Assembly: GCA_000004695.1 (NCBI GenBank)
Contig: CM000151.3
Span: 352,001-416,000, forward strand
Source: Dictyostelium discoideum
Taxonomy: Eukaryota
Length of the DNA stretch: 64,000 nucleotides
Reading direction: 5' to 3'
Part shown: positions 14,284-51,991 of the stretch, piece after piece
Position numbering within the stretch: the stretch's first letter is position 1
Layout of the letters: the number at the start of each line of letters is the position of its first letter
Position numbers and translations under genes: made by a program
Notes under the pieces: model-generated
The model's input: only the letters and a program-made list of their open reading frames with translations
What the model was told of the DNA's origin: nothing
The model's database searches: none

Positions 14284-14398
14284 TGTTGTAGGGAATTTTC
14301 CATAAAATTTCACTACAGTAGCGTAGTGAATTTTATTATTTAATTTCACTACAGTAGCGTAGTGAAAAAAAAAAATCACTGACCTTAAATTTTTTTTT
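14284..14398. repeat. left TIR of Tdd-4-like element
   Basis: Reverse complement of 18012..18127, with only about 2 mismatches in the parts compared. Confidence 0.8.
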
Positions 14399-14486
14399 TT
14401 TTCAAAAAACAAATAAAGTTTATTAAATTGAAATTTTATTTTTTGTTTTAATTATTATTTTATTTATTTTTATTATAATTATTGTT

Positions 14487-14526
<40 letters not shown>

Positions 14527-14667
14527 CAATTTTTTTTTTTTAAATTTTTTTCAATTTTTATTTGTTTATTAAATTGTAATTTTATTTTTTGTTTTAATTA
14601 TTATTTTATTTATTATTATTGTTAATTTTTTTTTTTTTTCAATTTTTTTTTTTTTATTTTATTTTTA

Positions 14668-14976
14668 TTAATTTATTTTTATTAACTCCCTGAGTTGTTC
14701 AATTGCTTGATTTACCATATCACTGTAAACACTGCACACAATTGAATTTTTTCTAGCTTTGTTACCTCTGGTGCATTTGATGTTTTTGCATTTTCCTTTG
14801 TATACAAAAAAGTCCAAATATAATTCGTTTTCTATTACAGTTTTTACACAATGTTGGTGAAATTGTTTTGATTTTAATTTTAATGCTTCTAACATCATAT
14901 TTGGATTTTTAACGATTAAAGCATCACCACTATTTACATATAGTACTTTGGCTGCTTTTTCGAGGAATTTAGTCAA
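14668..14976 (-). CDS. small ORF near the transposon 3' end (possible terminal exon or second gene)
   Basis: A 102-aa ORF begins at TTG. An upstream ATG ORF (MIEELIDSIKLLRNLAIEYGNEE) lies in another frame. Confidence 0.3.
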   Translation of the reverse strand: MTKFLEKAAKVLYVNSGDALIVKNPNMMLEALKLKSKQFHQHCVKTVIENELYLDFFVYKGKCKNIKCTRGNKARKNSIVCSVYSDMVNQAIEQLRELIKIN

Positions 14977-15302
14977 ATTTTCCTCTGAATCTAACTATTC
15001 TTCATTGCCATATTCAATGGCTAAATTTCTTAAGAGTTTTATCGAATCTATTAATTCTTCGATCATTCTTTTTTTTTGAAATTTTTTTTTATTTTGTTTT
15101 TTCAATTTTTTTTTTTTATTTTGTTTTTTCAATTTTTTTTAAGTTTTATTTTTTTTTATTTTTTTTTATTTTTTTTAACAAATGTAATTTTTTTTTATTT
15201 TTTTCAATTTTTTTTTTTTTTTAATTTTTAATTTTTTTTTTTTTTTTTAATTTTTTGTGTTGATTTGTGTTTTTTTTGTTTTTTTGATTTGGCCACTTGT
15301 TT

Positions 15303-16289
15303 TTATTTTCTAATTTCCCCATACCCCCTTCTATTAATTGCAACCAAATCAAGTTCTAATTTTTGTGTCCTTGTTAACTTTGTTTTTGCAACTTTTTTTG
15401 AAGGTATCACATTAACGATTTTTCCTATTGATGGTGATTTGGAAGGTGATTTAAATGGTGATTTAAAAGGTGAATTGGAAGGTGATTTAAATGGTGAATT
15501 GGAAGGTGAAATGGATGGTGATTTGGAAGGTGATTTAAATGGTGATTTGGAAGGTGATTTAAATGGTGATTTAAATGGTGAATTGGAAGGTGAAATGGAT
15601 GGTGATTTGAGAGGTGATTTGGATGGTTTAGAATGTGATTTTAAAGGAGGTTTATTAACAATTGGTATCTTATGAGGACGGCCTCTGAGACGTTTAACAG
15701 TTGTTACTATACCACTACCAGATTGTGGTATAGTATACGATGGTATTATTTGCACTTGAGGTATTGGTGGTACTATTTCTTTTAAATTCATATCCTTTCT
15801 CAAACAATTCATTAAATTTGGCGCTGTTGGATTATTATTTAAAAATGGGAGTATTTCTTCTTGTTCCATTTCATTATTGAGTTTGTGTTGAAATGGATTA
15901 TCGTTAATGATAGGTGGAATATTTGATGGATTGTTAAGAGCATCTTCCAAAACCCTAAATGGATCATTTTGTGTTACCAATTGATGCAAGTTGAAATTGG
16001 ATAAATCCTTACCAAGATTTTTAATAAACTGAACCAGAAATTCAATAACTTTCCCATCATTATTTAAATAAAGACCAGAAGTAAAAGAATCAATATCTTT
16101 TTGTATGTTTGGCGATGTTCTAAAAATATCAACTGTTGATTGTTTATAAAGAACCAACTTGTTACCTCCTACAAAACCAGAGTATAAACCTTTTTTTTGA
16201 AGGCTATTGATTCCATCTTCCAAAAATTCAAGTTTATAAAGTTGTTTAGTGTCTTCCTGTATTACCTTATGAATTTTACACAAAATCAA
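15303..16289 (-). CDS. transposon protein C-terminal region with AT-hook and (K/F)SPxK repeats
   Basis: A 328-aa ORF carries RGRPHK (AT-hook) and about 20 SPSKSPFKSP-type repeats. The plus-strand ORF 15265..15675 (GDLEGDLNG) is its antisense. Confidence 0.5.
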   Translation of the reverse strand: MILCKIHKVIQEDTKQLYKLEFLEDGINSLQKKGLYSGFVGGNKLVLYKQSTVDIFRTSPNIQKDIDSFTSGLYLNNDGKVIEFLVQFIKNLGKDLSNFNLHQLVTQNDPFRVLEDALNNPSNIPPIINDNPFQHKLNNEMEQEEILPFLNNNPTAPNLMNCLRKDMNLKEIVPPIPQVQIIPSYTIPQSGSGIVTTVKRLRGRPHKIPIVNKPPLKSHSKPSKSPLKSPSISPSNSPFKSPFKSPSKSPFKSPSKSPSISPSNSPFKSPSNSPFKSPFKSPSKSPSIGKIVNVIPSKKVAKTKLTRTQKLELDLVAINRRGYGEIRK

Positions 16290-16359
16290 TATTTTCTATT
16301 AGAATTAAATATAAAATTTGTTAATTATTACTGTTTCATATATTATTAATCTTTATGTT

Positions 16360-16629
16360 TTAATTACTTACATTATTTTTTTTAATTTCTAGAAAGAGTA
16401 CAGTATCACCAACTTTCAATCCCTTTGGTGGTTTTGAATTCCATTGATTTTGGTAACTTGTGAGATTTTCAAGAATAATAGCTGTTCTTTCTTCTTTTGA
16501 AACATCTGAAACACCAATTGATTGAGAGTCTTGTTCTGATTGAACATTAATAAACAAAGGAACAATACCAACAGCTTGAGATGGTTTCATTTTAATTGTT
16601 CTTGTTTTTGTATTATTGTAATCATACAA
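16360..16629 (-). CDS. transposon integrase exon: C-terminal domain
   Basis: The frame is continuous with upstream exons after a short AT-rich intron. It contains KVGDTVLFLE, an SH3-like integrase C-terminal motif. Confidence 0.45.
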   Translation of the reverse strand: MYDYNNTKTRTIKMKPSQAVGIVPLFINVQSEQDSQSIGVSDVSKEERTAIILENLTSYQNQWNSKPPKGLKVGDTVLFLEIKKNNVSN

Positions 16630-16703
16630 AGCTTGTTTTAATAGTTCAGAAAGAGACCTAGAAGTACCATCAAGAAAACTAAAATTTATTTATAAATGAT
16701 TAA

Positions 16704-17247
16704 TTAATAAACATATCGATAATTTATATTGTTCACAATATCATACTCTTGTTGTTTTAATTTTGAGATCCTCTCCTTGATAGTTCGATTCAATCTTTCT
16801 ACCATACCTTGAGTTGTTGGTGTACGAGGAGCTCCATGTGCTGACTTGGAGCCTGGAAAAAGTTTTAGGAATTCTTTTTGGACTTTGTTTTTAAATTCAC
16901 GTCCATTATCGCAGTGCCATACTTTCACAGGTTTGCCAAAGTACGTGAGAGCCAAAAAATTGTATATGGGAACTGTTCTCTTTGTTGTCAAACATCTAAA
17001 AAATAAATGATAATTAAAATAAAAAAAGAAAACTAATAAATTAATAAATAAAAAATAAATACCTTCCAGTAGCAAATTTTGTAAAAGAATCTATGCATAG
17101 AATAATGTAAACAACATCGGTGTCGTACGGTTGTACAGAGTCATATTGGATAAGATCATCTAGTTTAGTTAGTATCTTTTCATTATCATCATCGTATGTA
17201 ACTTTTTCTTTATGTTCACCTTTAATTGATGTTAAATCATAAACCAA
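16704..17247 (-). CDS. transposon integrase exons: rve catalytic core
   Basis: 17041..17247 reads ...DVVYIILCIDSFTKFATGR (first D). 16704..17075 reads ...VWHCDNGREFKN...HGAPRTPTTQGMVERLNRTIKERI (second D and the E of the DDE). The overlapping ORFs imply an intron of about 30 nt or a frame junction near 17041-17075. Confidence 0.65.
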
Positions 17248-17350
17248 TCTTGAGTATTCCTCGGTATCTACAATTGGAGCAAAATCCTTTGTTATACCTA
17301 TTAATTTATTTAAATTATTAAAAGAGTTTTAATATAAAAGTTACAAAACA

Positions 17351-17596
17351 TCATATAAAAATGATTGATACCAAACCTTTTATTCTATTTCGTTGGCAAA
17401 TGTCACACGTATCTACTGCATCAGATACAAAAGAATACAATCCCATATTATAATATTTAGTCTTGTAGTTCCCATAGGTTGCATCTCTTCCTATATGACC
17501 TTTATGCATTTCTTCCCAGAGTGATACCATTCTATAATCATTAATTACTTCTAAACACACTTCTTTTGATATATTTCTATCTCCGCCACAATTCAT
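17351..17596 (-). CDS. transposon integrase exon: N-terminal HHCC zinc-binding region
   Basis: ATG at 17596. The exon reads ...WEEMHKGHIGRDATYGNYKTKYY...VDTCDICQRNRIKG (H-x3-H...C-x2-C). Confidence 0.6.
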   Translation of the reverse strand: MNCGGDRNISKEVCLEVINDYRMVSLWEEMHKGHIGRDATYGNYKTKYYNMGLYSFVSDAVDTCDICQRNRIKGLVSIIFI

Positions 17597-17815
17597 GACT
17601 TTTTTTTCAATTCTAAATAATTTTTCTTTTCTGTTTCTGTTTTTTATTGGTCAGAATTTAAAAAATGATTGTGTTATTGTAAGGAAAAATATTTACTCAT
17701 CATGTAAAAATTTATAATTTTTATGTTTAGTATTTTCAAAATTATTATCTTCAATAAATTTTAAATAATTTATAATTTCATTTATTTTATCTTGTTTCAT
17801 TTTGGGAAAATGAAA

Positions 17816-17850
<35 letters not shown>

Positions 17851-18011
17851 TGTTGGGGAAAAAAAAAAAAAGTTTTGGCGCAAAAAAAAAAAAAAAAATA
17901 AAATAAAAAAAAAAAAAAATAAAATAAAAAAAAAAAAAAATAAAAAAACTTATATAGAACTAATAATCAAATAAAAGATAATAATTTAATAAACTTTATT
18001 TGTTTTTTGAA

Positions 18012-18127
18012 AAAAAAAAAATTTAGGGTCAGTGATTTTTTTTTTTCACTACGCTACTGTAGTGAAATTAAATAATAAAATTCACTACGCTACTGTAGTG
18101 AAATTTTATTGAAAATTCCCTACAACA
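18012..18127. repeat. right TIR of Tdd-4-like element
   Basis: See the left TIR. Confidence 0.8.
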
Positions 18128-19153
18128 TTATTGGATATATCAAAATCAGTAAATCAATTGGGTGATAGTTGTGGTGGTAGTATTGGTATTTGTAGTGGTA
18201 GAGGTATTCATTCTTCTAATGGTCTTGTTAGCTTAATAAAAGGTATAACCTTTGGAATTGGTAGTAATGATTTTTTCGACTTTAAAAGAAATAAGAATTA
18301 TGCAGATTTTGCAAAACACTTTGCTTCAAATCCACAAATTTACAATAGTGATAAATTAGATCACAATGAATTGTTTTTATTATTCACTACTGCTGTATCA
18401 TCATCATCATCATCATTTTCATCTAAAATTCCAATTCACTTTGAAACATTAAGAAATTTATTAATTAATGCAAAAGCTTTTGGAAGAAAACCAATCATTG
18501 AAAGAACAAAACCAACACCCATACAATGCCATTATTCAAAAGAATATTTAAAATTTTTGGATTGGATGTATATAAATTATAATAATGGAATTGAAGATCA
18601 AGATCAATTCTTAGGTATGATTAAAGAAAGATATAAACACCATTTACTTATTACAATTGATAGATTAAATCTTAACAATAACAATTATTTTGATGGTAAT
18701 GAAGAAGGAGATACAATTTATATTGAAAGATTAGGTTTCTTAACAAATGATGTCATACGTTTCACCCCATATTTATATGAAATTAATAATTTTAAATTTT
18801 TAAATTGGTTTTTAACAATCATTCAAAAACATCACAATTCTATGCCAACAACCGAACATCATATTTTATGTATTAAAGAAATGATTTACACATTTATGGA
18901 ATATATTATATCAAATTCAAAATTAGAAATACTTGAATACATTCATCAAAATTTTCATTTCATTTTAAATAAAAAATCAAATGGTGGAATATTAAATATT
19001 AAAGATTTGAAATCTTTTTTAATTTCATCACTTAATAGAGGTTCAATTAAAATTTCTAAATTCCTTTTTCAATTCATTACCATCACTAAAAATGAATTTG
19101 AAAAAAATTTAAATGAAAAAACAAAATCTTATTTTAAAAATATGTTAGAATAA
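18128..19153 (+). pseudogene. family paralog, 3' portion downstream of transposon insertion
   Basis: It resumes at the TSD copy and is colinear with the C-terminal third of the paralogs (...GLVSLIKG...FASNPQIY...TPYLYEINNFKFLNWFLTII...), ending at the stop at 19151-19153. Confidence 0.7.
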
Positions 19154-19699: not shown

Positions 19700-20239
19700 A
19701 TATAAATGAAACCAGTAAAATTGTTATTAAGAAACATAGTATTTGAAATATTGCTTAAAAATTTTTGCATTCTTGTTTTTTGATTTTTAGTAACGGATAT
19801 TAAATCATATACAACTAATAAAGAAACCTATTATAATATATTTAATTAAAAACAATTATAAGTTTTTTTTTTTTATTTATTTTTTTTATTTATTTATTTT
19901 TTTTTTTATTTATTTTTTTTTTTTTTTTTTTTTTCTTTAATTTTTTTTAAAAAGACATAAAAATAGTCAATGAAGATTTAAAATGAGATTCATAATCACA
20001 ACAATAATAGTTTTTTAATATAATTTAAAGGTGGATAGTATTGTGGAAGAATAGATTTGGGTGGTGGTTGTATATTTGGTGAATATTGTGTGGCTACAAT
20101 TGGTTTAACTTGAGACGAAAATGTTTGGTCATAGTGTGAATCAAATTTTTCAAGTGGAGGAGTATATGTTGTATTTATTTACATTGTTCGAGTAAATATT
20201 ATTATTAATATTATTACTATTATTATTATTATTATTATA

Positions 20240-23040: not shown

Positions 23041-23530
23041 CCAAATATTAATAAATTATTAAATTGAAATCCTTTTTTATATAGAATTATTAAAAAAAAT
23101 AAAAAATAAAAAATAAAAAATAAAAAAAAATAAAAAAATAAAATTAAAAAATAAAATTAAAAAATAAAATAAATTAATGAATGTTTTATTTTATTTTACA
23201 TATAACAATAAATTTTTTTTTTATTTTTTTTTTTAATTAGTCAAAGGCTTTTAAAAAAAAAAAAAAAAAATTAAATAAAAAATTTGATTAATAACTATAT
23301 GTTGATGAAGCTCCTGCAGAAGAAATAATTAATATTAAAAACAAAACCATGGAAATAATAAACAAAACAATTGAAGCAGTGGCTAGAGTTTTTGCATTCT
23401 TGTTTTTTGATTTTAAGTATCTGATATTAATTAACCATATACAAGAAAAAAAGAAACCTTTTATAAATGTATTAAATTATAATAATAATTAGTAGTTTTT
23501 TTTTTTTTTTTTTTTTTATAAAAGACATAC

Positions 23531-23858
23531 CAATAATAAAAATAATTAATGAAGAATTAAAATGAGACTCATCATCATCAGCACTAATAGTTTTATTTAC
23601 ATTTGGAGGTGGATAGTATTGTGGAGATTGAAGAACAATTTTTGGTGGTTGCGTTTCTAATGAATATTGTGCGGCTATAATAGGTTTGATTTGTGGTGAA
23701 AATGTTTGGTCATAGTGTGAATCTAATTTTTTTTCAATTTGAGGAGTATATGTTGTATTTACATTGTTAAAGTAAATATTATCATTAATATTATTATTTA
23801 AATTTTGGTTATGAGATGAAGAATTTTCTTCATTTAATTGAATATAATCTGTTCCCAT
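23531..23858 (-). CDS. small Pro/Asn-rich protein, exon 1 (paralog A); putative tail-anchor exon downstream at about 23288..23392
   Basis: ATG at 23858 starts MGTDYIQLNEENSS...PPKIVLQSPQYYPPPN...DDDESHFNSSLIIFIIG, followed by a GTATGT donor at 23530. The downstream exon encodes YLKSKNKNAKTLATASIVLFIISMVLFLILIISSAGASSTYSY* (TM helix), but the splice phase to it is not resolved. Confidence 0.5.
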
Positions 23859-24349
23859 TTTAATTGATTAAGCAGGAAATTAAAATTTAAAATTTAAATA
23901 AAAATTTTAGATTGGAAAATTAAAAAAACAACGTAGCACTTTTTTTCTAGTAGTCTAGAAAAAAAAAAAAAAAAGAAAAAAAAATTTAAATTAAAAACAA
24001 TTTTTTTTTAAAAAGACAAATTTGCAGGTTCTTTGATTTTTGAGAAAAAAAATTTTATTCAATCAGTTCCTTAATAAAAAAAAAAAAAAAAAAAATTAAT
24101 TAATTTTTTTAATTTTTTTTAATTTTTTTTATTTTATGGCGATAATAAGAATGACGATTCAAAAAATTAGAAATTTTTTTTTTTTTTAAGAAAAAATGAT
24201 TGATGGGAATGAAACATTTAAAAAAAAAAAAAAAACGAAAGATAGTTTTTTTTTTTTTTTTTAATTTTTTTTTGGCTGATATTTTGTTTTCCAAGAATAT
24301 TGTAATAAAGATACGATTTTTAAAAGTTGATAAATTAATAAAAAAAAAA

Positions 24350-24500
24350 AAAATGGATAGAGATAAAAATAATAATAATAAAATTAATAATAATTTTTTG
24401 AAAAATAAAAATGAAACTTTTATCGAAGAAAACAATGAATAGAAAAAAGGATTTGTAATCAAATAAAGAGATTTAAATAAATTTTATAATATGCCAACAA
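24350..24500 (+). pseudogene. decayed 5' fragment of a family paralog
   Basis: ATGGATAGAGATAAAAAT (MDRDKN, the family start also at 37391 and 49343) is followed by ...FLKNKNETFIEENNE and a stop-ridden remnant of the SAP-like motif. Confidence 0.45.
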
Positions 24501-24941
24501 CTAATTAAAAATATCATTGTTGTAAAAATAAATAAATAAATAAATATATAAAAAATAATAATGAGATTAATAAAAGTTTTTTTTTTTAATTTTTTTTTTT
24601 AATGATTAATTTATTTTAAGAAGATTAATTTTTTTAATGATTAGTTTATTTTAAGAAGAACTTTTTTTTTTCTAATTTATTTTTTAATTAAAAAAAAAAG
24701 GATTTTATGAAGCTGAAATAATTATAAAGAAACCCAAAATTATGGAAATTACAAACAAAACAATTGAAGCAGTGGCCAAAGCTTTTGCATTCTTGTTATT
24801 TGATTTTAAGTAACGGATGTTAATTAACCATATACAACTAACAAAGAAACCTTTTCATAAACATATAAAATAAAAATAATTACTATTATTAGTTTTTTCT
24901 TTTTTCTTTTTTATTTATTTTTTTTTTTATAAAAGACATAC

Positions 24942-25284
24942 CAAGAATAAAAATAATCAATGAAGAATTAAAATGAGATTCATCATCATCAACACTAATA
25001 GTTATAATAGCATTTGGAGGTGGATAGTATTGTGGAGATTGAAGAACAATTTTTGGTGGTTGTTGTATTTCTTGTGAATATTGTGTGACTACAATTGGTA
25101 TACCTTGGGATGAAAATGTTTGGTGATGGTGTGAATCTAATTTTTCAATTTGAGGAGTATATGTTGTATTTACATTGTTTAAGTAAATATTATCATTTCT
25201 ATTATTATTATTATTATTATTATTTAAATTTTGGTTGTGGAATGAAGAATTTTCTTCATTCAATTGAATATAATCAGTTCCCAT
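24942..25284 (-). CDS. small Pro/Asn-rich protein, exon 1 (paralog B); putative tail-anchor exon at about 24720..24830
   Basis: ATG at 25284 starts MGTDYIQLNEENSSFHNQNLNNNNNNN...PPKIVLQSPQYYPPPN...SLIIFILG, followed by a GTATGT donor. The tail exon encodes YLKSNNKNAKALATASIVLFVISIILGFFIIISAS*. Confidence 0.5.
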
Positions 25285-25545
25285 TTTTTATTGAATTTGG
25301 TGAGTAAATAAAATTAAAAAATTAAATAGAAACTTTTACAAATTAAAAAAAAAAAACAAATTTAAAAAAAAAAAAAAAAAAAATTAAATTAAAAAACAAT
25401 TTTTTTAAAAAGGCAGTTCTTTGGTTTTTGAGAAATTCTGATCGATTTATTTATTAGAATAACACAGGTTGGTGGTAACACAAAAAATTGAAAATTTTTT
25501 TTTTTTTTTTTTTTAATCGATTTATAAAATATGGGTGTATTTTTC

Positions 25546-25657
25546 TTGAGAGATTATCATCATTAATTCATTATGTGTTAACCGACTCACTCCATTTTCA
25601 TATGAAATTAATTTTTTTAATTTTTAAATTGGTTTTTGACAAAGATTAAAAATATTC
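25546..25657 (+). pseudogene. 112-bp fragment of a family paralog (TPYLYEVNNFKFLNWFLTKIKNI region)
   Basis: About 85% identity to 40015..40130 of the 37413 paralog. It abuts the 3' end of TRE3 copy 2. Confidence 0.6.
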
Positions 25658-25671
25658 TTTTTTCATTCAAA

Positions 25672-28080
25672 GGTTTTTTTTTTTTTTTTGATATAAATAA
25701 ACTATTGTAGTATAAAATTAGTATGTTATTTTTATTTATTTATTTTAGGTTTTTTAGTTTTTGTGAATTTAAAATGGTATGTTATTTTAGATTAGGTAAT
25801 TAATAATTAATTGGTGGTGTAATTGTTGGAATTGGTTCATTTGTGTTTATGCTCCATTCTTTTTTAAATTTTTTGATGGTTTCGGACCATTGGGTTTCTT
25901 TTTGAGTTTTTATGAGGTTGTTTTTAATTGAGTATTGGTTAAAGTTTGATAATGTTCTTGAATATTCCAATCTTATTAGCTTGTGCCATTTTGATTTTAA
26001 TATATCATAATCTAGTGTTGTGTTGTTTATTTGGTTGTTCCAATTATCAATTGATTGAGTTATATTGATGTCAAATAATGATTTGAATAACCATATCCAT
26101 ATTTGGTGAATAACTAATGAGATTATGTTCCAATATGCATGTGTTCTGACTAGATCAAGATTTGTGTTTATATAATTCCAGTTGAACCTGTATTTTTTAT
26201 ATTGTGCGTTTTCTGCAAAATGAAAATTAATATTGATAGTTGGATCTGGTTTAAATGCTTTGTTGTTTGTTTGTGGTTTATAAATGAGTGTGTATAATTT
26301 TGTTGTTTGGTTTTTTGTTAGTGACCAGTTTTTGTTTCCATTGCAATTTTTATATATAAAATATTTTAATTTGTCGTGGTTTATGAAGTAGATTGTGTGC
26401 TGACAATTGAAAAACAAATGACCATAGGGATCATTATTCATTTCATTGTTGCAAATGGGGCAAACTTTGTTGAGTAGATGATTAATCGGAAGACATCTAG
26501 CATGGAATCTTTGCATTGTATCACGGCCTTTTGGATCTTTTAGCTTTTGAATTTTGACAAATAGTTGGTCGTATGTGTATTTCCATAATAGTTGTATTGA
26601 TTGTTGGTGCGAAGTAAGAAGTAGATCTGAATATTTCTTTCCAATATAGTCTTTTGATTTACATTGATGATTGTTGAGTATTGTCGAGTAGATTTCTTTG
26701 AGTGTTGGTGGTAGTGAAATATTATTTGTTGTTAATGTTTGAGAGGTTTGGTTTTTTATTAATATTGGTTAAAGGGTTTGAACTTTATCTTTTAGATGTC
26801 CAATTTGAGTTGCATAGTTTTCCCATTCTTTTTTTATTTTTATAAGGTATGGAGAAGAGATTGATTTGTTAATAATTTGATCCATCCAACTTATCATGTA
26901 TATTGAATTGTTTGCAGATTTATGCATTTGTAAAAATCTGTTGTATATCCAAATCTTTTGAGCAACTTGTCGTAATTGTATATTCCACATACCCCAACCA
27001 CCTTCTTTTAATGGTTTTAATGATCTATCATAACACATCAAAGGTATTTTTGCACGTGAATGGATGGTTGATGTGTTATTTTCAATGGAATTGGTATTGA
27101 GAGTTGGTGATTCAGAATTTGCGGGAGAATTCATAAACCATGAGATTAATTTATTAATTTGAATTTCTTCATCTTTTGTAAATTCTTCAAGGTATGATAA
27201 ATATGTTATTGGTGATAGTGAGTAGGTGTTTATGATGGTTGTTTTTGTTTTTAATGTTGTGCCACTAGTTTTCCATAGTACTAATGATTTGATCAGTGTT
27301 TTCATTGTTTCTGGTAATTTCCTATGTAAACCATTATGATTAAAGAAATAGCCAATGAACTCTTTCTGATTGATCTTTTTTGGTTATTGGAATTCTTTTT
27401 GATTGTGGAATGTTGTTTATTATGTGTTTATCAGTGATTTTGTGGTGGTTGATTTCTATTATTGCACTTTTGTCAAAATTTAATGATGATGATGTTGAAG
27501 CGCAGAAATTATTTGAAATGTTTGATTGATTGTTGTTGTTGTTCGTAGGTGATGTTGTATGTTGTAGAGTCGTCTGCAAATTGGGTAAATTTAATTTTAA
27601 TTTGTGGTAATCCAATTATTGTATTGTCTGCATTTATTGTTCTTGCTAATATTTCAATTACAATTACAAATAGAGTGGCTGAGATTGGGTCACCTTGTTT
27701 TACACCTCTTTTAATATCGAATTTTCTGGTCGTTTTACCATTAATTGAAATTTTTGCTTGTGGAGTCAGATAATAGCTTGTGGATTAAATTTATTAATTT
27801 TATTGGTATACCAATATGAATTAATGTTCTTTTAATACTATCGTGAGAGATAGAATCAAATGCTTTGAAGAAGTCAAATAGTGTGATGATACCAGGGAGG
27901 TTTTTAGATTTGAGGTAGTTGATTAATTCATTGATGTTGATGATGTTGTCTATGATGAATCTGTGGGGTACGAAACCAGTTTGGTTGATGTTGATGATCT
28001 GACTACAGTGAGAATTGGTTTAACTTGGTTTAAATGATTAATGTAGAATGCATTTGTAACGTGCATTCTACATAAACATA
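25672..28080 (-). mobile_element. 5'-truncated TRE3-type non-LTR retrotransposon (copy 2)
   Basis: Minus-strand ORFs 25800..26516 (CCHC: FHARCLPINHLLNKVCPICNNEMNNDPYGHLFFNC) and 26769..27305 are colinear with the C-terminal part of copy-1 ORF2. An RT fragment lies at 27330..28020. A T17 run at 25672-25688 is its likely poly(A) tail (plus-strand poly(T)). Confidence 0.6.
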
Positions 28081-28084
28081 AGAA

Positions 28085-28735
28085 AAGATGGATATTATCA
28101 CCTGGTACTGCAAATGACCATGAAGCAATCAATATTATCAATCATTTAATAACTAATCACAATAACACATCAATCAATCAATTCCCAAACTGGTCAAAAG
28201 TAAAATCAAAAATTATTAAAACTCTAAAAAACTATCAATATAACAAAGACAAACAAACTCAACGTGCAAAACAAATACTATTAGAAAAAGCAGCAAAATT
28301 CAAACATCTTGAAGAACAATGCATCGCTGAATACAACATTATATGTAACAAAAACAAATTACATCAAAACCACACAAACATATTAAAAAACATATAAATG
28401 GAGAAATACCTAGCAAGTATCTATCAGCAATACTAAACAAAAGATCAAAAGATGCAAAAATTGCATCAATCTAATATGGTAACATCATTACATCCGACCC
28501 CGACCAAATTGAAAATGCGTTTGTTGAATTCTACACAAATCTATATAGCTTACAAATATGTTGTCCAATTACTCACCAGCTCATGCTAAACACATGGCCC
28601 ATCATAAAAAATGAATATTGGAATGGTTTAGACTCACCATTTATACAAGATGAAGTTGAAGCTGCAATTAAAACCTGTAACCCCAACAAATCACCCGATA
28701 CAGTTGAAATCTCCTGCGATAATAGATACATGTTG
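28085..28735 (+). mobile_element. inverted TRE3 ORF2 fragment (EN-RT linker region), frameshifted
   Basis: The plus-strand translation ...IENAFVEFYTNLYSLQ...NEYWNGLDSPFIQDEVEAAIKTCNPNKSPDTVEIS matches copy-1 ORF2 ...IEEEYVKYYSNLYDYKEDDPLSHYEMLENW...EILEVIKQLNPHKSPGPDGIP. The junction with the minus-strand RT fragment carries a 10-bp hairpin (gtagaatgca/tgcattctac, 28046-28074). Confidence 0.5.
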
Positions 28736-28739
28736 GGAT

Positions 28740-29017
28740 TGGTTTGGTATTGGGTTTGTTGAGTGGTTGTGGAGAAGTGTTTGTAGTGAAGTTGCATATG
28801 AATTCTTTTTGATGGTATTATTTGATGCTGGTGCGTAAATTCCAAGAATACCAATTGGTAATTGATTTGGAAATATAACGTTTGCTAAAATAACTCTACC
28901 ATCAATTGTTGATATGTGTTTGAGTTTGAGTGTGTTTGGGTTATGGTTAATGATGATTACACCATTTCCTCGTTTGGTGACAGAGATGATGTGATCGGGA
29001 AAATCATGTTTAAGTTG

Positions 29018-29020
<3 letters not shown>
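28740..29020 (-). mobile_element. TRE3 endonuclease-domain fragment
   Basis: The minus-strand translation ...IDGRVILANVIFPNQLPIGILGIYAPA matches copy-1 EN ...IEGRLIISDILIKDTTTRILAIYAPA. Confidence 0.5.
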
Positions 29021-29095
<75 letters not shown>

Positions 29096-29549
29096 TGGAT
29101 TAACAAGATTGATATATGTCCATCTGTGTTAATACGAGTTTTATTTAATATTTATTTAAAGGCTTATCGTTTAAGCTGAAGGGTTATTTTAATCATATGA
29201 ATTGATCAAAAGATATAATATTTGGGAGAGATGATTCTGGAATACAATAGTAATTAGCTGTTGTTTTTCTTAGCTTGATCGTTGAAGTGAGAAGGATCTT
29301 AGGATCTTTGAAGTTATTATGGTCTTTTGCAGATAAGTTTTTCAGATCTTTTGCTTTTTTGATGTATTCTAGAGTGGCCAATTTGTGCCATTTCTTTAGA
29401 AGGGAGCTGTATGATAGTGATTCATCTGTTAAAGGATCTTTACTGTATATTTGATTGCAAATTCAAATTCAAATGTTGTGGAGGATAAGGGCCATTAAGT
29501 TTCTATATGCGAATGATCTGGTTAGATCATAGTCTATTGCTTTATATTT

Positions 29550-30278
29550 TCATTCAAAGTATTCTTTGTGGAATCTGTGGTTGGCGTAATCTGCATTCAC
29601 TTCTTGATCTTTTTTGGCTGTCGGTGATAATTTTGGAGTTATTCTATTAATGAAATTGTTATTTTGCCTAATTCTTGTATGGTGCCAGTTTTTACCTTTG
29701 CCTGTGGTAATATAGATGAAATTTTTGAGTTTATTTATTTTTATGAATTGTTTTGTTTTCTTACATGAGAAGAACAGGTGGCCGTATGGGTCTTTGCTCA
29801 TATCTTCTTTGCAGAGTGGGCATTGTTTGTTGTGAAGGTAGTTTATTGGAAGGCATCTGGCATGGAATCTAAATATTGTGTCTCTTGTTTTAGGGTCTTT
29901 TATCTTCAGTATGTTGTTGAAGAGTTGATTATAGCTGTAGCCTCTTAAGTTTAGAGATGATTGGAATTCCGTTTTAGGGATGGTTGGATTTTGGTCTTGA
30001 ATTGTTGTATACCATTCTGCCAGTGAAAGTGGTTGTCCATTTTCGTTTTTTATGGATGTGAGATTATTGTTGAAGATTGCTTTTGTGATTCTTATTTTGT
30101 TCCATTCGTCTAAGTTTTCTTTTAGGTATCTGGATGTGAATTTGTTTTTTTGGATCTGATATTCCCAGCTTTTGTCATAGCTAAAAGTAGGGGGCTGGAA
30201 CATTTGGAATATAGAATTGAGACAACTGGCGCAGAAACTTTGGATCATAAACCAGTTCATCCTAGCACTAGAAACCAA
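29550..30278 (-). CDS. TRE3 ORF2 C-terminal continuation (CCHC zinc finger), separated from the main ORF by a stop or frameshift
   Basis: It contains FRFHARCLPINYLHNKQCPLCKEDMSKDPYGHLFFSC. In copy 2 the homologous region is contiguous with the upstream ORF, so copy 1 probably carries an inactivating mutation or a sequencing error near 30279-30296. Confidence 0.6.
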   Translation of the reverse strand: MVSSARMNWFMIQSFCASCLNSIFQMFQPPTFSYDKSWEYQIQKNKFTSRYLKENLDEWNKIRITKAIFNNNLTSIKNENGQPLSLAEWYTTIQDQNPTIPKTEFQSSLNLRGYSYNQLFNNILKIKDPKTRDTIFRFHARCLPINYLHNKQCPLCKEDMSKDPYGHLFFSCKKTKQFIKINKLKNFIYITTGKGKNWHHTRIRQNNNFINRITPKLSPTAKKDQEVNADYANHRFHKEYFE

Positions 30279-30296
30279 ACAAACAAACTCATCTCA

Positions 30297-32873
30297 TCAC
30301 AGAATAACTTGAAATCCACTAGCATTTTTGTTGTTTGGTGCCGATAAAAACCATTCGACTAATTTATTGATTTGGTTTAATTCCTCTTCCTTAAAGTTCT
30401 CTACATATGAATAGTAGGTTAATTTAGAGAGTGCGAATGCTTTGAGGATGTTGGTTTTGGTTTTGATTGTTGAGTCAGTGGTTTTCCATAGTACTAAGGA
30501 TGATCTTATTGTGTTTAATATTTCTGGCATTTTTCTTGTTATCCCTTTACCTGTGAAGAAGTATCCCAAGTATCTTTCTGGATTTGTAGATATTGGAATT
30601 CTTTGGTTGGTATTGTCTGGGTTGCCTATAAGAATTGATGAAGATTTGTCGATGTTTAGTTTTGAGGAAGTGGCTTTGCAAAATGAATTGAAGTGTTGTA
30701 GTACTAATTCAAGTTGTTGAGAGTCTGGGACCATTGAAGCCGAGTCGTCTGCAAAGCTTTGGAATTTCTCTCTGTGGTTGCTGTTGTTTAGAGGAAGGCC
30801 AGTAATTCGATCATCTTGTAAAATTTTTCTAGCTAAAGCCTCTATTACAAGGACGAACAGTGTGGGTGATAGTGGATCTCCTTGTTTAACTCCTCTTTTG
30901 ATCTCAAAGGGTATAGTAGTTCTACCATTAATTTCAATTCTTGCTTCAGATTTGGTGAGTAGATTCATTATCAGGTTGATTATATTGGTTGGAATGTTGA
31001 TGTGTTGTAGTGATCTAAGTATTGAACCGTGTGAGATCGAGTCAAAAGCTTTTTCGAAATCATATAGTGTAATTATTCCGTTAATTCTTTTATCATTACA
31101 ATAGTTGATTAATTCGTTCATTGATATGATATTATCTATAATGAATCTGCCTGGTACGAAACCTTTTTGATTGTGGTTGATCACTTTCGTTAGTATTGGG
31201 ATTATTCTATTGTTTATTAGCTTTGAGTGGATTTTATATATACAGTTAGCCAGTGTAATTGGTCTTCTGTTTTTGATTAGTTCGGGGTCTCCCTTTTTAG
31301 GTATCGTGATAATGAGGCCTTCTTTGTAATTTTTGCTAATTAGATGAGGATTTCTTAGAGTGTCGTTGAATGCTGAGGCCAGTATTGGAGCTAGTTTTTC
31401 TTTGTGTGTTATGTAGAATAAGTTTGGAATTCCATCTGGACCTGGAGATTTGTGTGGGTTCAGTTGTTTTATTACTTCTAGGATTTCTTGTGAGGTGAAT
31501 TCATTTTCAAGGTTGTCCCATGTTGAGTCCCTGGTCACTGTCCAATTTTCCAACATTTCGTAATGAGATAGTGGGTCATCTTCTTTGTAGTCATAAAGAT
31601 TTGAGTAATATTTTACGTATTCTTCTTCGATCAATTCCTGTTTGTTAATTGTTCTACCTTGTGCATCTTTTACTGCGTTGATGGTGAAATCATTGTGTCT
31701 TTTCTTGATTCTCGCGGAGATGTACTTGAGTGAGGTTTCTTCGCAATAGTTGTTCAATTCTTGTTTAAGTTGTTCTTCTCTTTTTTTAGATTCATTTATT
31801 GCTGAAAGGGTTGCGAAGGCTTGGTCTTTAAATTCTGTCTCTAGTAGGGAGATTAGATTTTTGATGTTTGCCTTATTGTTGTAGTCGTTTTGTTTTTGAA
31901 ATTCGGTGTATAGTTGTTTTATTTTGTTTAGTAAGCTGTTGAGTTGAGAGAAGGAAATAGAGTTATGGTTGGATGACAGCTCCCTTGAATAATCGTTAAG
32001 TAGGAAGTCTATTTTCTTAAGCATTATGCTTGAGAGGATTGAGGATTTTTTTAATCTCCATCTGCGCTTGTTCATCTGTATGTTGGGTAGAGTGAAAGTG
32101 GTTGATAGGAAGTTGTGATCTGATAGAGGTATGTCGTTAATTTTTGGGGGGATTAGGTTCCTTAAGTATAATTGGCTGTAGTTGATTAAGCTATTGTTAA
32201 GGTATATTCTGTCTAGTCTCCTTTCCAAGATTCTTGTGAGGTTATTGTTTGTGTTGTGTATCGTTCTTGAGAAGGTGGGTCTTTTATTTAGTTGGTCCAT
32301 ATCCATTAGGTTATTTGAAATTCTGATGGCTTCGATTACTGTGGCCATCTCATCTGGGGATTGTGTTGTCAGGTTGCCTTGGTCATCATTTGATGTGTGA
32401 TTGTCATTGAAGTCTAAACAGTTGAAGTCGCCTGCTATGATGTCGATGTTTTTATTAGGGTTAGACGTTAGGTTGTGGTATTGGTTGTTGAAGTGTTTAT
32501 TTAGTGTTGATGCTAGTGTTTTTCTTTTATCAGGTTGGGCCGGGGCGTATATGGCCAAGATTCTCGTTGTGGTATCTTTTATTAGAATGTCTGATATTAT
32601 TAGTCTACCTTCTATTATGAATATTGGTGAGAGTTTTATGTTTTGGTTGTTGTGGTTTAGTATTCCTATTCCGTTGCCTCTGTTGGTTGCGCTAATGATG
32701 GAGCCAGGAAATAGCTGGTGTGCTTGTGTTGCGTCGGCGTTGAGTTCATTGACTATGGTTAGTGCCAATGAGTTTGGGGGGGATTGGGATTTGATAAAGT
32801 CTGTTTTGTTTTTGAAGGAGGTGTCAGTACCCCAACCTCTGACATTCCATTGGTTGATTTTGATTACTACCAT
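30297..32873 (-). CDS. TRE3 ORF2 (endonuclease + reverse transcriptase), main part
   Basis: The 858-aa ORF begins MVVIKINQWNVRGWG (APE-type EN). RT motifs are ...PKKGDPELIKNRRPITLANCIYKI... and ...FADDSASM.... The minus-strand ATG at 32873 overlaps the end of ORF1. Confidence 0.8.
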   Translation of the reverse strand: MVVIKINQWNVRGWGTDTSFKNKTDFIKSQSPPNSLALTIVNELNADATQAHQLFPGSIISATNRGNGIGILNHNNQNIKLSPIFIIEGRLIISDILIKDTTTRILAIYAPAQPDKRKTLASTLNKHFNNQYHNLTSNPNKNIDIIAGDFNCLDFNDNHTSNDDQGNLTTQSPDEMATVIEAIRISNNLMDMDQLNKRPTFSRTIHNTNNNLTRILERRLDRIYLNNSLINYSQLYLRNLIPPKINDIPLSDHNFLSTTFTLPNIQMNKRRWRLKKSSILSSIMLKKIDFLLNDYSRELSSNHNSISFSQLNSLLNKIKQLYTEFQKQNDYNNKANIKNLISLLETEFKDQAFATLSAINESKKREEQLKQELNNYCEETSLKYISARIKKRHNDFTINAVKDAQGRTINKQELIEEEYVKYYSNLYDYKEDDPLSHYEMLENWTVTRDSTWDNLENEFTSQEILEVIKQLNPHKSPGPDGIPNLFYITHKEKLAPILASAFNDTLRNPHLISKNYKEGLIITIPKKGDPELIKNRRPITLANCIYKIHSKLINNRIIPILTKVINHNQKGFVPGRFIIDNIISMNELINYCNDKRINGIITLYDFEKAFDSISHGSILRSLQHINIPTNIINLIMNLLTKSEARIEINGRTTIPFEIKRGVKQGDPLSPTLFVLVIEALARKILQDDRITGLPLNNSNHREKFQSFADDSASMVPDSQQLELVLQHFNSFCKATSSKLNIDKSSSILIGNPDNTNQRIPISTNPERYLGYFFTGKGITRKMPEILNTIRSSLVLWKTTDSTIKTKTNILKAFALSKLTYYSYVENFKEEELNQINKLVEWFLSAPNNKNASGFQVIL

Positions 32874-34116
32874 TATGAGATGATATCGATCTCCTCTTGG
32901 GAGTCGTATAGCTGCGGTTTGGATGGTGAAGGGTAGATACTCTCTATGAAGCTCTCAATGATTCCTTTCCTTTCTTTATTGACAGGTGTCTTAGGGGTGG
33001 ATGGGATGTAAGGGTTGCTTCTGTTTATTGTTGGTGAGAGTTGGGTGACCTCGTTGTTTGAGTGGATTTCCTCGTTCTTGCGTTTATGTGATGGAGGGAT
33101 GTTTGGTGTCTTCTCTCTGTTTTCCGAGGATGAATGGATGTTAGTGCTCGTTTTGTTGGTATTGTCTTTTTGGATGGCGTTGGATGTTGTGGTAGTGGTT
33201 GTGGTGGGTTTGACAGATTGAGATTCTGCTTGGTTTTTGGGGGGAAGAGGTTGAGAGGACTTTTTTGATTGGGCTTTTTTCTCTTGGGTTGATTGTTTAT
33301 CAGACTGATTGTTTGCTGGGTCATTTGTTTGTTGTTGTGGTTTTGGTTGAGAGGATTTGATTGCTATCCTGTTTTGGGTGTTGGGAGGATCATCTGTCAT
33401 CTCATCTTCTAATGGTTCTTCCGTGTTGTTTGACTCTACTTTCTTATTTTTCTTTTGTGAGGAGTAGGTTTTGGTGGCCGTTCTGATGGTAAAGTTGGCG
33501 ATTTCTGTATTGTGTTGGCCAGATTTCATTTGATCGCCTATTTTGCATTCTATTAGACCGAATACTAGGAGGTGGTAGGTGGAGTATGTAGTATGGTATA
33601 TTGCATAGGGTATTTCTTCTGCAAAGGCAGTTTTGATGAGGGCGTCCACTATTCCTGCCTTTTCTTTTGGAATTCTTACTCTTCCTGTGAGGACGTGGTA
33701 GTCTCTACTGGAGGTGATGAAAGTTCCCAATTTGCTTCTATCTCTAATGATATTTAGGAGAGATTGTCGTTTTTAATCATCAGGTGTATCATTTTTCTAG
33801 TTCCTTTGCCTATGTATATCTTGTCGATTGGGATATCGTAGTTTGAGAGTGTTTTTCTCATTTCTTCTAACCCCATGAGATCCATTTTGGGGAATTCGAG
33901 TGTAATTGGGTAGAATCCGTTGTTTTTCTCGTAGGTTGAGAGCGCAGTCATGTTCAATATGGTCTCGCAGTATTTGGAGATGTCTTTGAGGCCTATTGAT
34001 AATTTGGGGTAGGTCTCCTTTATCTCTGCTGTTTTTGTGGAGAATTCCTTAATGAAGTTCTCTGATGCCTCGTCCATATGGGGGGCCATTTTAGCCGCGT
34101 CTGCGTAGGAATTCAT
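32873..34116 (-). CDS. TRE3 ORF1 (two frames: 33754..34116 and 32873..33730)
   Basis: ATG at 34116 starts MNSYADAAKMAPHMDEASENFIKEF... There is a frame change near 33730-33754, after which the basic, Thr/Gln/Pro-rich ORF1 continues to 32873. Confidence 0.55.
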
Positions 34117-34365
34117 CTCGATGGGATTCCTTTGAATCGGCGATTTGGTAAGTTAGATCTGTAGATCGTGGTGGATTGGTGATTTTTTTTGAAAGATTGG
34201 TTAAAATTGACCGAGATTAAGGATAGAAAAGGATGAATTACTTTTCACGTGTATCTTGTATCCTCTTGATCGCGGTACGGTTTTTTTTTCTCTTTTTATT
34301 GAAGTAACATTTTTCACGTGTATCTTGTATCCTCTTGATCGCGGTACGGTTTTTTTTTTAAGTTT

Positions 34366-34397
<32 letters not shown>

Positions 34398-34412
34398 CAG
34401 CAACTTAAAAAG

Positions 34413-34486
34413 TATTCAGAGCGGGAATCGAACCCACGACCTAATCCGTGTTAAGGATTCGTGATAACCGACTACACCATCCGAAC
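34413..34486 (-). tRNA. tRNA-Val (anticodon AAC)
   Basis: The minus-strand sequence is GTTCGGATGGTGTAGTCGGTTATCACGAATCCTTAACACGGATTAGGTCGTGGGTTCGATTCCCGCTCTGAATA. It forms a cloverleaf with a 7-bp acceptor stem (two G-U pairs), a TTAACAC anticodon loop (AAC), AGGTC in the variable region, and a GGGTTCGATTCCC T-arm. A T5 Pol III terminator follows immediately (CTTTTT). It closely resembles eukaryotic tRNA-Val(AAC). Confidence 0.85.
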
Positions 34487-34514: not shown

Positions 34515-34782
34515 TGTAATAAAGCTTGTTAGCTTTATAAATATATATAATTAATAATTATATAATTGAATAATACTTTGTTATCTTTATTTAATATTAA
34601 TTTATATTTATAATATTCAATATTGTTTATAAAATTATTCTTTAGTATTTATATTATTTATAATGAGTTGACAGTATTATTATTATTATTATTATTATAT
34701 TATTTAAATGTGTGTCAACTATAATTAGTAATGTAATATGCATATTTAATATCTATTAATTTTATAGAGTAACTTTATTACA
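34515..34782. repeat. 3' LTR (relative to the minus-strand element)
   Basis: Identical to 36887..37154. Confidence 0.85.
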
Positions 34783-35379
34783 TATCCCCCCCTTTTAGTT
34801 GAAAAAAATTTTTCAATCTTTTAATATAAAACACATCATGATTTTTAATATTATCCAATACTAATTTGAATTTTAAATCGCTAACTCTCTCATGTACTTT
34901 GAAAAGACCTTCCCAAGATTTATTGAGCTTTACTGGACCAACAGTGGATTGTAAATAGACATAATCTCCTACTTGAATATTTGAACGAGAAACTTTTTTA
35001 TTAATTTGTGATAATTGGTCTTTACCAAGATTATCCTTAATGAGACAAGGACGTTTGAGGTTATTATTTACAATTTGGGCGAAATTATGAGCAAAATCTA
35101 ATCTTGATAAATTTGTACATGGATTTCTTATTAATGGTTGAATTGAGGTTATTTGTGATTTAATTATTGAATTCTCTGTTTGATTTAATGATATTGATTT
35201 TAATGGTAAATTTGATGTTATTGGTGAATCTATTGGTTCTTGGAATAAGAATTCTGGAATATCGTAATCTATTGGTAGTTGTTCTTCAATAGTTGGATAC
35301 GATTTGATTGATAGTATATGATGAGAATTAAAATTTTCAATTAAATGATCAGTATCTGTTAATAATTCTGATTTTGATG

Positions 35380-35410
<31 letters not shown>

Positions 35411-36705
35411 TGAATAATCAGATACTGTTTTAAATATAGTTTGTATACATGGTTGGGTTTCTTTAGATATTAATTTGGTACCAACATTGAATTCAAGATT
35501 CTTAATGATCATTTCTTTAAAATCAATGACTAAATTTAATCCAATTATTGTATCAATGCCAAATATACAATCAATTGATGTATCATTATCTTTAACAACA
35601 TTAACTTTAACTCTAGCGAATGCTTTACCTAATTTAATTGTTGTGTTACTTATTCCAATGATTTTGATTTCATTATTTGATGCTGATTTAACAGAATATT
35701 GTTTATTTTCAATCTTTAATTTTAACTTTTTAGCAATACTTTCCCAAACAATAGTAAGTGATGAACCAGTATCAATCAAACCTCTAACATTTTTATTATT
35801 TATTAATAAAGCTGCATTCATACTATCTATTCCAATTGAATTAATTGTACTATTATTAACCATTGTAATTGCATTAGTGCTATGATTATTATATGATTGT
35901 TTATTCTCATTATAATTATTCTTTTTATCTTTAGACCAACACTCTTGAATTACATGACCTTTCTTTTTGCAATATTTACAAAATTTTGTGATTGAATTTA
36001 CTTGATTTTGTGGTGCTTTATAAGGGGATGATTGTGGTGACATTTGTGGTGATCGATTATAATATTGATTTTTAAAAATTGGTGTTGAAATTTCTTCAGA
36101 TTCAATTGATTGTTGTTCGTTTTGAGATGTAACATATTGAGGGGATGTTGCAGAATAACCAGAACCCGAACCTAGATATCTTTGATTACCAAATTCTTGC
36201 AACGTCTTTGCAACTAATTGACCAGTGTACATTGATCTACCTTTGATACGAATTGAACCATCTTCACAAGACTTTGCAATATCTATTGCTCTTTTTAATG
36301 ATTTTGGTGCACATTTTGTAATTTCAATACCCAATTCAGTACCAACAGCTGAATAAAACAATTGTATTTTAAACTTTTCTGAAATATCAACTGCTGAACA
36401 TTTTGATAGAAATTTACCAATTAATATATCTAATGTATTGTATTTATATTCTCCCAACTTTGTTAATTCTGTTAAATCATCACTATCACCAATATCAAAA
36501 GCATCTTTAAGATCTTCAATTATCTCCATTGCTGTTAAGTCTGTATCCAATGTTGCGGCATATTCCAATGCATTGTTTCTTAGTTTTCTAATAATATCAG
36601 CTTTCGATATTTCCTCGCCATGAATTAGTAAGAGTAAGTGTTTGAATTTACGAAATGATAAACCTTTTCCATCACCCGAAAAAATTACGTTTTCATTATT
36701 ACTCA

Positions 36706-36706
<1 letters not shown>
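34778..36706 (-). CDS. LTR-element polyprotein remnant: Gag (CCHC) - aspartic protease - integrase C-terminal region
   Basis: ATG at 36706. It contains the CCHC knuckle CKYCKKKGHVIQEC and the protease motif LIDTGSSLTIVW. The C-terminal ...VGDYVYLQ...KLNKSWEGLFKVHERVSDLKFKLVLDNIKNHDVFYIKRLK resembles the Ty3/gypsy integrase C-terminus (GPF/Y...VFHVS.LK). No RT, RNase H or IN core lies between them. Confidence 0.7.
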
Positions 36707-36776
<70 letters not shown>

Positions 36777-36886
36777 TATTAAATTAAATTTAATCTAATG
36801 TAAAATTTTAATTGATTGAATAATTTGATAACTTTATATTTATAGTATATTTTTTTTTTTTTTTTTTGAAAGACGATGTCGCCAAA

Positions 36887-37154
36887 TGTAATAAAGCTTG
36901 TTAGCTTTATAAATATATATAATTAATAATTATATAATTGAATAATACTTTGTTATCTTTATTTAATATTAATTTATATTTATAATATTCAATATTGTTT
37001 ATAAAATTATTCTTTAGTATTTATATTATTTATAATGAGTTGACAGTATTATTATTATTATTATTATTATATTATTTAAATGTGTGTCAACTATAATTAG
37101 TAATGTAATATGCATATTTAATATCTATTAATTTTATAGAGTAACTTTATTACA
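36887..37154. repeat. 5' LTR (relative to the minus-strand element)
   Basis: Identical to 34515..34782. Confidence 0.85.
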
Positions 37155-37412: not shown

Positions 37413-40448
<3,036 letters not shown>

Positions 40449-41192: not shown

Positions 41193-44354
<3,162 letters not shown>

Positions 44355-44913: not shown

Positions 44914-47967
<3,054 letters not shown>

Positions 47968-51903: not shown

Positions 51904-51934
51904 ATGAGTAACAACAGTAATAGTAATAATAGTA

Positions 51935-51991
<57 letters not shown>

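Follow-up and report, generated by a model that had tools for sequence, protein, structure and literature searches.

A retrotransposon insertion cuts a gene in two and leaves both halves in place, and studies of L1 have shown that non-LTR insertions are sometimes accompanied by deletions at the target. L1-type 3' transduction yields the order element, internal poly(A) tract, foreign sequence, and unprocessed pseudogene fragments at the edges of gene arrays are short, frameshifted and promoterless while keeping the orientation of the array and the level of divergence seen among its members. The elements that concern us here belong to two Dictyostelium retrotransposon types that integrate next to tRNA genes. 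As described in a review (PMC5006619), TRE3 of D. discoideum combines endonuclease, reverse transcriptase and a Cys/His-rich C-terminus in its ORF2, has a poly(A) end, and integrates some 100 bp downstream of a tRNA gene, pointing the same way as that gene, and DGLT-A has its primer-binding site 2 bp from the left LTR and integrates 13-33 bp upstream of a tRNA gene.

In the 64-kb stretch of D. discoideum DNA analysed here (the window; GC ~22%), a short fragment of a gene from a local family lies beside a pair of TRE3 copies, x and y (Table 1). These copies resemble the TRE3 elements covered in PMC5006619 in the domains of their ORF2, in their poly(A) ends, in lying downstream of a tRNA gene in its direction, and in having the younger full-length copy nearer the tRNA; they depart from that type in that copy x has an internal inverted segment, and the fragment is not part of TRE3. 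The fragment itself has all the above-mentioned features of unprocessed array-edge relics, but unlike them it retains only ~42 internal codons and is absent at the same site in two other strains, so that its origin in situ is no more than likely. With L1-type 3' transduction the locus shares the order of the parts and the absence of the block from other strains; it differs from it in a would-be terminal tail of only T5, in that neither a target-site duplication nor, in the ~150 kb of loci compared, a source locus was found, and in a foreign piece that is much older than the element. A further comparison is available within the window, where paralog D of the same family also has a transposon next to family sequence, but D retains both halves around a 3.8-kb element with 243-nt inverted ends, whereas the fragment starting at 25545 lacks both.

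The window carries a cluster of plus-strand genes for proteins of ~900-1050 aa, here termed paralogs A to I. The sole Pfam signal in this family is a weak N-terminal match of the Rho_N/SAP-like type, and its relatives in the databases are Dictyostelium hypothetical proteins only (e.g. AX4 DDB_G0271438 and DDB_G0271166), with the qualification that the search, made with E as query, gave 21 matches dominated by low-complexity words and with neither E nor its orthologues among them. The halves of paralog D, at 13358-14287 and 18278-19141, lie on either side of a DDE transposon, and this retention of both halves is the signature of true insertional disruption.

Table 1. Features of the window that bear on the fragment (positions are those of the window)
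Feature	Position	Strand	Remarks
Paralog A	1-2669	+	
Paralog B (fragment)	3419-4586	+	
Paralog C	6067-8898	+	
Paralog D (split)	13080-14287 and 18278-19153	+	
DDE transposon in paralog D	14284-18127		3.8 kb; 243-nt inverted repeats 14284-14526 and 17885-18127
5' relic of family gene	24340-24480	+	Promoter-proximal region and first ~40 codons; ATG 24353
Small membrane-protein gene, copy 3	24705-25284	-	Intact, two exons, 162 aa, ACTFIT_002130; sits between both relics
Left flank	25436-25539		Upstream region of the small gene; includes T20 25495-25514
T5 at left junction	25540-25544		No homology to G or F; between strain-conserved left flank and fragment
Family-gene pseudogene fragment	25545-25670	+	Codons ~865-907 of E; three frameshifting indels, one in-frame stop
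A16 poly(A) tail of TRE3 copy x	25674-25689	-	T16 on + strand
TRE3 copy x	25690-29006	-	Copy 2 of the first-pass annotation; 5'-truncated, internally scrambled
A72 poly(A) tail of TRE3 copy y	29019-29090	-	T72 on + strand; meets 5' end of copy x
TRE3 copy y	29091-34349	-	Apparently full-length: ORF1, ORF2; repeated 5' modules 34232-34350
tRNA-Val(AAC)	34412-34486	-	Target of TRE3 and DGLT-A
DGLT-A LTR retrotransposon	34515-37154	-	Internally deleted; 28 bp upstream of tRNA-Val gene
Paralog E	37413-40448	+	'Paralog 37413' of the first-pass annotation; fragment counterpart 40005-40134
Paralog F	41193-44354	+	
Paralog G	44914-47967	+	Closest relative of fragment; fragment counterpart 47602-47722
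Paralog H (fragment)	49496-51113	+	
Paralog I	51904-54636	+	

The homology of the fragment was established by a blastn search of 25400-25760 against the window and by Smith-Waterman alignments. The former matched eight paralogs, all in register and on a single strand; the latter gave 85.4% identity to G over 123 columns (25545-25666) and 82.0% to E over 133 columns (25539-25670), both on the plus strand, with a second alignment to E reaching 83.5% over 121 columns. Paralog F matches 25520-25653 at 80% and paralogs A-D match at ~75%, again on the plus strand, so that the identity to E, F and G amounts to 80-85% at the DNA level over 110-133 bp. A first-pass annotation had reported a relic about 85% identical to E at 25546-25657, subject to its not dissolving into AT-rich background on proper alignment. 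The relic withstands this comparison, as its alignment score of 144 was reached by none of 200 dinucleotide shuffles (mean 34.8, sd 4.4, max 52; z-score ~25), and the matched part is indeed the ...LERLSSLI..TPFLYEVNNFKFLNWFLTKIKN... coding region named there. The reported span was likewise a genuine match; its limits need to be widened to 25545-25670, and the closest paralog in the window is G (85%) rather than E (82-83%).

This homologous stretch is an internal piece, with ~2.6 kb of the coding sequence lacking on its 5' side and ~310 bp on its 3' side; it retains only ~42 internal codons of a ~1010-aa protein, with ~96% of the gene gone. What remains is translated in three different frames (LERLSSLIHYV / LTPFSYEINFFNF* / LNWFLTKIKNI), leaving no intact ORF or functional gene, and the annotation of GCA_054883475.1, with contig JBTAPE010000001.1 and locus tags ACTFIT_, has no gene model at the site. 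On these sequence grounds we regard the fragment as a true piece of a ~1000-aa family gene and as a pseudogene. That it is a processed, retro-copied pseudogene can be dismissed, for the run that follows it is a sense-strand T16 that belongs to the minus-strand TRE3. Its age is indicated by the identities across the same ~125-bp region, which are 85.5% between the fragment and G, 81-83% between it and E, and 80.6-81.5% between it and F, as compared to 85.5% for E-G, 84.8% for F-G and 82.3% for E-F. The fragment is thus as distant from each of the three as they are from each other, which marks it as a separate lineage and eliminates a recent filler copy of E, F or G. Judged by these values, it represents a fourth lineage within the E/F/G clade, one that would be as old as the array's own duplications.

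To the right of the fragment, the first-pass annotation had placed it directly next to a T17 tail of TRE3. The adjacency is real, but the run is a T16 (25674-25689), and the three bases 'AGG' separate it from the end of the fragment. The element behind this tail, copy x, can be aligned to ORF2 of copy y, of which it retains three pieces: aa 55-153 at 29002-28697 on the minus strand, aa 362-477 at 28361-28696 in inverted, plus-strand orientation, and aa 562 to the end at 28004-26313, again on the minus strand. Its identity to other copies is 96.7-98.3% at the DNA and 97-98% at the protein level. Copy y gives a strong Pfam match to RVT_1 (E 4.9e-34) and one to Exo_endo_phos that is below the Pfam gathering cut-off (E 0.0014), and the C-terminal ORF of copy x holds a CPIC...H...C motif; across both copies ORF2 hence has an endonuclease, a reverse transcriptase and a zinc-finger-like C-terminus. 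The AX4 homologues are named only 'hypothetical protein'. A 13-mer, TTTTCATTCAAAG, is common to 25660-25672 and 29547-29559, probably by chance.

The 3' end of the element can be fixed by comparison with two further copies in the same genome (L008 5591-7221 and L009 5826-6768), which match the window up to 25674-25676, end alike at ...ATACTACAATAGTTTATTTATATC followed by A14 and A18, respectively, and then run into unrelated DNA. The canonical 3' end of this TRE3 family, as seen in these two other copies, is therefore ...TTTATTTATATC + A(n), and since they end there, the fragment is flanking DNA and not element. The dinucleotide 'CC' directly follows the A-tail in the window as well as in L008, in agreement with an ordinary integration junction where the fragment ends on the right. 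These two copies, too, each have a tRNA gene just upstream of them: tRNA-Val(TAC), 40 bp away, for one and tRNA-Gly(GCC) for the other. In the window, the A72 and A16 tails, the position of the pair downstream of tRNA-Val(AAC), with the 5' end of copy y ~62 bp from it, and their orientation with the tRNA reproduce this placement. As the pair sits at the canonical TRE3 site, the tRNA gene was the target: the two elements came for tRNA-Val and not for the family gene. Copy x yielded no target-site duplication; for copy y a possible one, 'TTTAAGTTKG' at 29010-29018 and 34357-34366, was read by eye and is of marginal significance. Together with the logic that the newest element lies nearest the tRNA, this suggests that copy x is the older insertion and copy y the more recent one. 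Across the tRNA gene from the pair, the element at 34515-37154 has LTRs of 268 bp that are 100% identical to each other and an exact match to the DGLT-A primer-binding site TGGCGACATCGTCTTTC at 36884-36868 on the minus strand, and agrees with DGLT-A both in this site and in its position upstream of the tRNA gene.

To the left, the fragment joins the upstream (promoter) region of a small membrane-protein gene at 25539/25540, and no transposon is found there. The small gene has three local copies, one of them at 19763-20233; the duplication unit of copy 3 (24524-25435) is 75% identical to that of copy 2 (23134-24047). Beyond copy 3, 1.07 kb upstream of the fragment and on the same strand, lies a second piece of the family, a 5' relic that reads MDRDKNNNN... 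up to a stop after 29 codons. Its closest match is the start of E, with a score of 158 as against 42.5±6.4 for shuffles. Hence, the earlier statement that nothing else of the gene remains holds for its last ~310 bp, of which there is no trace between 19200 and 37400, but needs qualifying in view of this 5' relic of a family gene in the same orientation.

Homologues of the small gene led us to the syntenic loci of two other D. discoideum strains, L002 (GCA_054859385.1) and L003 (GCA_054859355.1), which are ~88-92% identical to the window. In both the order is small-gene copy 2, 5' relic, copy 3, left flank, spacer, tRNA-Val and the orthologue of E. The 5' relic is 90-91% identical to that of the window and is also truncated. 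Synteny is lost after ...atatgggtgt(a), the left flank being conserved as far as this point with 91-94% identity. What follows is an AT-rich spacer before tRNA-Val of 185 bp in L002 and 306 bp in L003, and neither TRE3, DGLT-A nor a paralog is found at the orthologous site in either strain. The prospect of an intact paralog at this position in related strains, raised in the first-pass annotation, is thus not borne out in these two TRE3-free strains, which have only the 185-306 bp of spacer there.

Compared to L002 and L003, the window lacks ~170 bp of spacer and has one additional block (25540 to ~34395), whose distal end is formed by the fragment; the synteny break at 25539/25540 coincides with the left edge of the fragment. 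After 'gggtgt' the three strains have three different sequences, and L003 has a ~62-bp tandem duplication at this point. The spacers show no significant similarity to the fragment, with 356/500 and 34/500 shuffles reaching the observed scores for the two spacers, and against the 3' regions of the paralogs they score no better than shuffles; a residual fragment of the form 'tttttctttga...ttcattat' in these spacers was a match by eye only and was dropped when the shuffle tests proved not significant. The spacer of L002 was not found anywhere in the window. In a further isolate, cf. discoideum L005, a paralog directly follows the same left flank, and tRNA-Val is absent. This paralog was rejected as proof of an intact ancestor of the fragment, being E-like in the diagnostic region at a locus where tRNA-Val is missing; by its sequence it is probably the E orthologue after a deletion of ~600 bp. 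The locus of the D. citrinum homologue of the small gene is not syntenic.

With these observations in hand, we lean towards an origin in situ: the fragment would be an old remnant, formed in place, of a further (fourth) member of the array, which we call X, and TRE3 would later have trimmed or merely abutted it. Several lines of evidence argue for this: 1) the orientation and clade of the fragment match those of the adjacent E/F/G array. 2) The fragment is decayed, with three indels and a stop in ~125 bp, whereas copy x is young. 3) A same-strand, E-like 5' relic lies upstream and was truncated already in the TRE3-free strains, so that the family gene at this place had probably died by the time TRE3 arrived. 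4) The 'CC' after the A-tail looks like an ordinary TRE3 junction. 5) The T5 is all that could serve as the terminal tail of a 3' transduction. X would have been the fourth member of the tandem E/F/G array, standing at its upstream edge in the array's orientation, and older rearrangements, connected with the local duplication of the small membrane-protein gene, would have left only scraps of it, perhaps including its 5' end in the form of the relic upstream. Target-primed reverse transcription would then have placed copy x ~60-65 bp downstream of tRNA-Val, by chance at the right edge of the fragment. Copy y and DGLT-A would have come afterwards, the former between copy x and the tRNA, the latter upstream of the tRNA. 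In this sequence of events the right end of a pre-existing relic would be set, and perhaps was trimmed back, by TRE3, without the element having killed the gene. Against an in-situ origin stand the absence of the fragment from L002 and L003 and the fact that the fragment and both TRE3 copies behave as one block; this origin hence needs a deletion in the lineage of those strains whose starting point is no more than a few bases away from where the fragment begins on the left. The site is clearly unstable, as the three sequences after 'gggtgt' and the tandem duplication in L003 show.

The shared breakpoint would be accounted for at once if the fragment were a passenger that was never part of a gene at this site and came with the TRE3 block, and the inserted block of which it forms exactly the distal end, the ~185-bp spacer seen in L002 and L003, which the window lacks, and the want of any significant trace of the fragment in these strains all speak for this rather doubtful but not implausible alternative. 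It could have been captured in an insertion-linked repair or recombination event that removed the ~170 bp of spacer downstream of the tRNA. Alternatively, read-through from a source TRE3 beside a paralog elsewhere would have given the element, A16, 125 bp of flank and a short tail, a layout that, with T5 and then the target following the foreign sequence, resembles L1-type 3' transduction. That TRE3 itself carried the fragment by such transduction of flanking gene sequence we regard as improbable: the internal A16 is present, but the terminal T5 (25540-25544) measures only 5 nt as against the 14-72 nt of the tails seen here, and no target-site duplication was found. The T20 at 25495-25514 was considered as the terminal tail of a transduced block and discarded, as it and the next 25 bp are conserved in L002 and L003. 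For a passenger in general, the agreement of the fragment with the adjacent array in orientation and clade would be a coincidence; the fragment is far more decayed than the young element, so its source must already have been a decayed pseudogene; and no source locus was found in the ~150 kb of loci compared. In the one review section considered (PMC5006619) there is no report of 3' transduction by TRE elements.

The model of the first-pass annotation, in which an intact paralog stood here and was destroyed by the insertion of copy x, can point to the homology with E that reaches within 3 bp of the TRE3 tail and to the target deletions that non-LTR insertions can bring. We nevertheless consider it very unlikely, and the claim of a second independent transposon hit on the family is likewise not supported: the fragment lacks the two halves that mark the split paralog D, and the TRE3 pair sits at a tRNA site. 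On the side where 2.6 kb of 5' sequence is gone, the fragment borders on the conserved promoter of another gene and on no transposon; in the TRE3-free strains the site holds no paralog; the gap between the fragment and tRNA-Val before TRE3 came to only ~60-65 bp and could not have held the ~310 bp that are gone; and the decay of the fragment is far older than the young element. Moreover, TRE3 targets tRNA genes (PMC5006619), as the two other copies also show, and not this ~1000-aa family. A chance AT-rich similarity, or an origin of the fragment from the TRE3 3' untranslated region, has a practically negligible probability. The former would have to produce the z-score reported above and in-register, one-strand matches to eight paralogs; the latter would require the fragment to be the 3' end of the element, and was set aside because the other copies, ending at ...TATATC + A(n) with A14 and A18 in L008 and L009, have unrelated flanks.

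Taken alone, the remnant favoured here matters little, being an ordinary unannotated pseudogene scrap in a transposon-rich, rearrangement-prone cluster. It does carry a caution, in that adjacency to a transposon is no proof of gene disruption, above all for elements that home to tRNA genes. If, on the other hand, transduction were true, TRE elements could shuffle host gene fragments, and the family gene actually hit by TRE3 would lie elsewhere in the genome; to our knowledge, this would be the first tRNA-gene-targeted Dictyostelium retrotransposon seen to move host coding sequence. The two TRE3-free strains provide a clean empty-site control. Their comparison with the window also shows that the paralog cluster differs strongly among D. 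discoideum isolates, in its TRE3 and DGLT-A insertions, its small-gene copies and the indels of its spacers.

A second relic of the ~1000-aa family lies to the left of the fragment at 25545-25670, between copies 2 and 3 of a small gene for a membrane protein (see table below). Its nearest match is the start of paralog E, the family gene at 37413-40448, and its reading frame opens with an ATG at 24353 and reaches a stop after 29 codons. The relic is also found, at 90-91% identity, in L002 and L003, the syntenic loci of two other D. discoideum assemblies, which have no TRE3 at this site. Relic and fragment may come from one dead gene, of which the relic would be the 5' end.

Comparison of these two loci with 19000-45000 of the window revealed only ~88-92% identity across the cluster, despite the same species label, with the paralog E orthologue ~90.5% identical; transposon content differs as well, as do the spacer indels. 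The pattern points either to unusually high within-species divergence at this gene family or to cryptic species. The site directly 3' of '...atatgggtgt', the end of the conserved left flank, is unstable (L003 9700-9830; L005 8900-9140): L003 carries a ~62-bp tandem duplication there, and in the cf. discoideum locus L005 the flank runs directly into an E-like paralog at its codon ~13. The tRNA-Val is absent at the latter locus.

The small gene has an AX4 relative in DDB_G0271152; locally, copies 2 and 3 appear intact and copy 1 degenerate. When copy 3 is compared with its counterparts in L002 and L003, identity to the window is 97% over the initial 230 bp as against ~78% for the remainder of the unit, a disparity that points to a mosaic or to gene conversion.

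Coordinates of the relic, the small-gene copies and two transposable elements in the window
Feature	Position	Description
Second family-gene relic	24340-24480	upstream sequence and first ~40 codons
Small two-exon gene, ~160-aa membrane protein, three local copies	19763-20233, 23134-24047, 24524-25435	
DNA transposon, 3.8 kb	14284-18127	243-nt inverted ends, 81% complementary; DDE_3 transposase gene
DGLT-A, internally deleted, 2.64 kb	34515-37154	28 bp upstream of tRNA-Val

In TRE3 copy x (25690-29006), the ORF2 segment encoding aa 362-477 is inverted (28361-28696) and sits between normally oriented aa 55-153 and aa 562-end, an arrangement resembling the inversion/deletion products of L1 twin priming. 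TRE3 copy y ends in an uninterrupted T72 tail (29019-29090), its 5' end is separated from tRNA-Val by an odd T10-AAGTTTG-T31 run (34350-34397), and it has a possible target duplication, TTTAAGTTGC / TTTAAGTTTG. One 13-mer, TTTTCATTCAAAG, is found at the junction of the fragment with copy x (25660-25672) and again, without mismatch, within copy y (29547-29559); by a rough estimate, the chance of such sharing is ~3%.

The DGLT-A element has 268-bp LTRs, terminates in TG...CA and shows what looks like a CCGT target duplication, together with an exact match to the published primer-binding site at 36884-36868; it is not present in the L002 or L003 loci. Because both LTRs are 100% identical, their sequences imply a recent insertion, in contrast to a passage in the AX4 literature suggesting that DGLT-A amplification may have ceased (PMC5006619). 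The DNA transposon cuts paralog D cleanly, with both halves of the gene kept; this is the locus that the first-pass annotation had called the Tdd-4 split copy.
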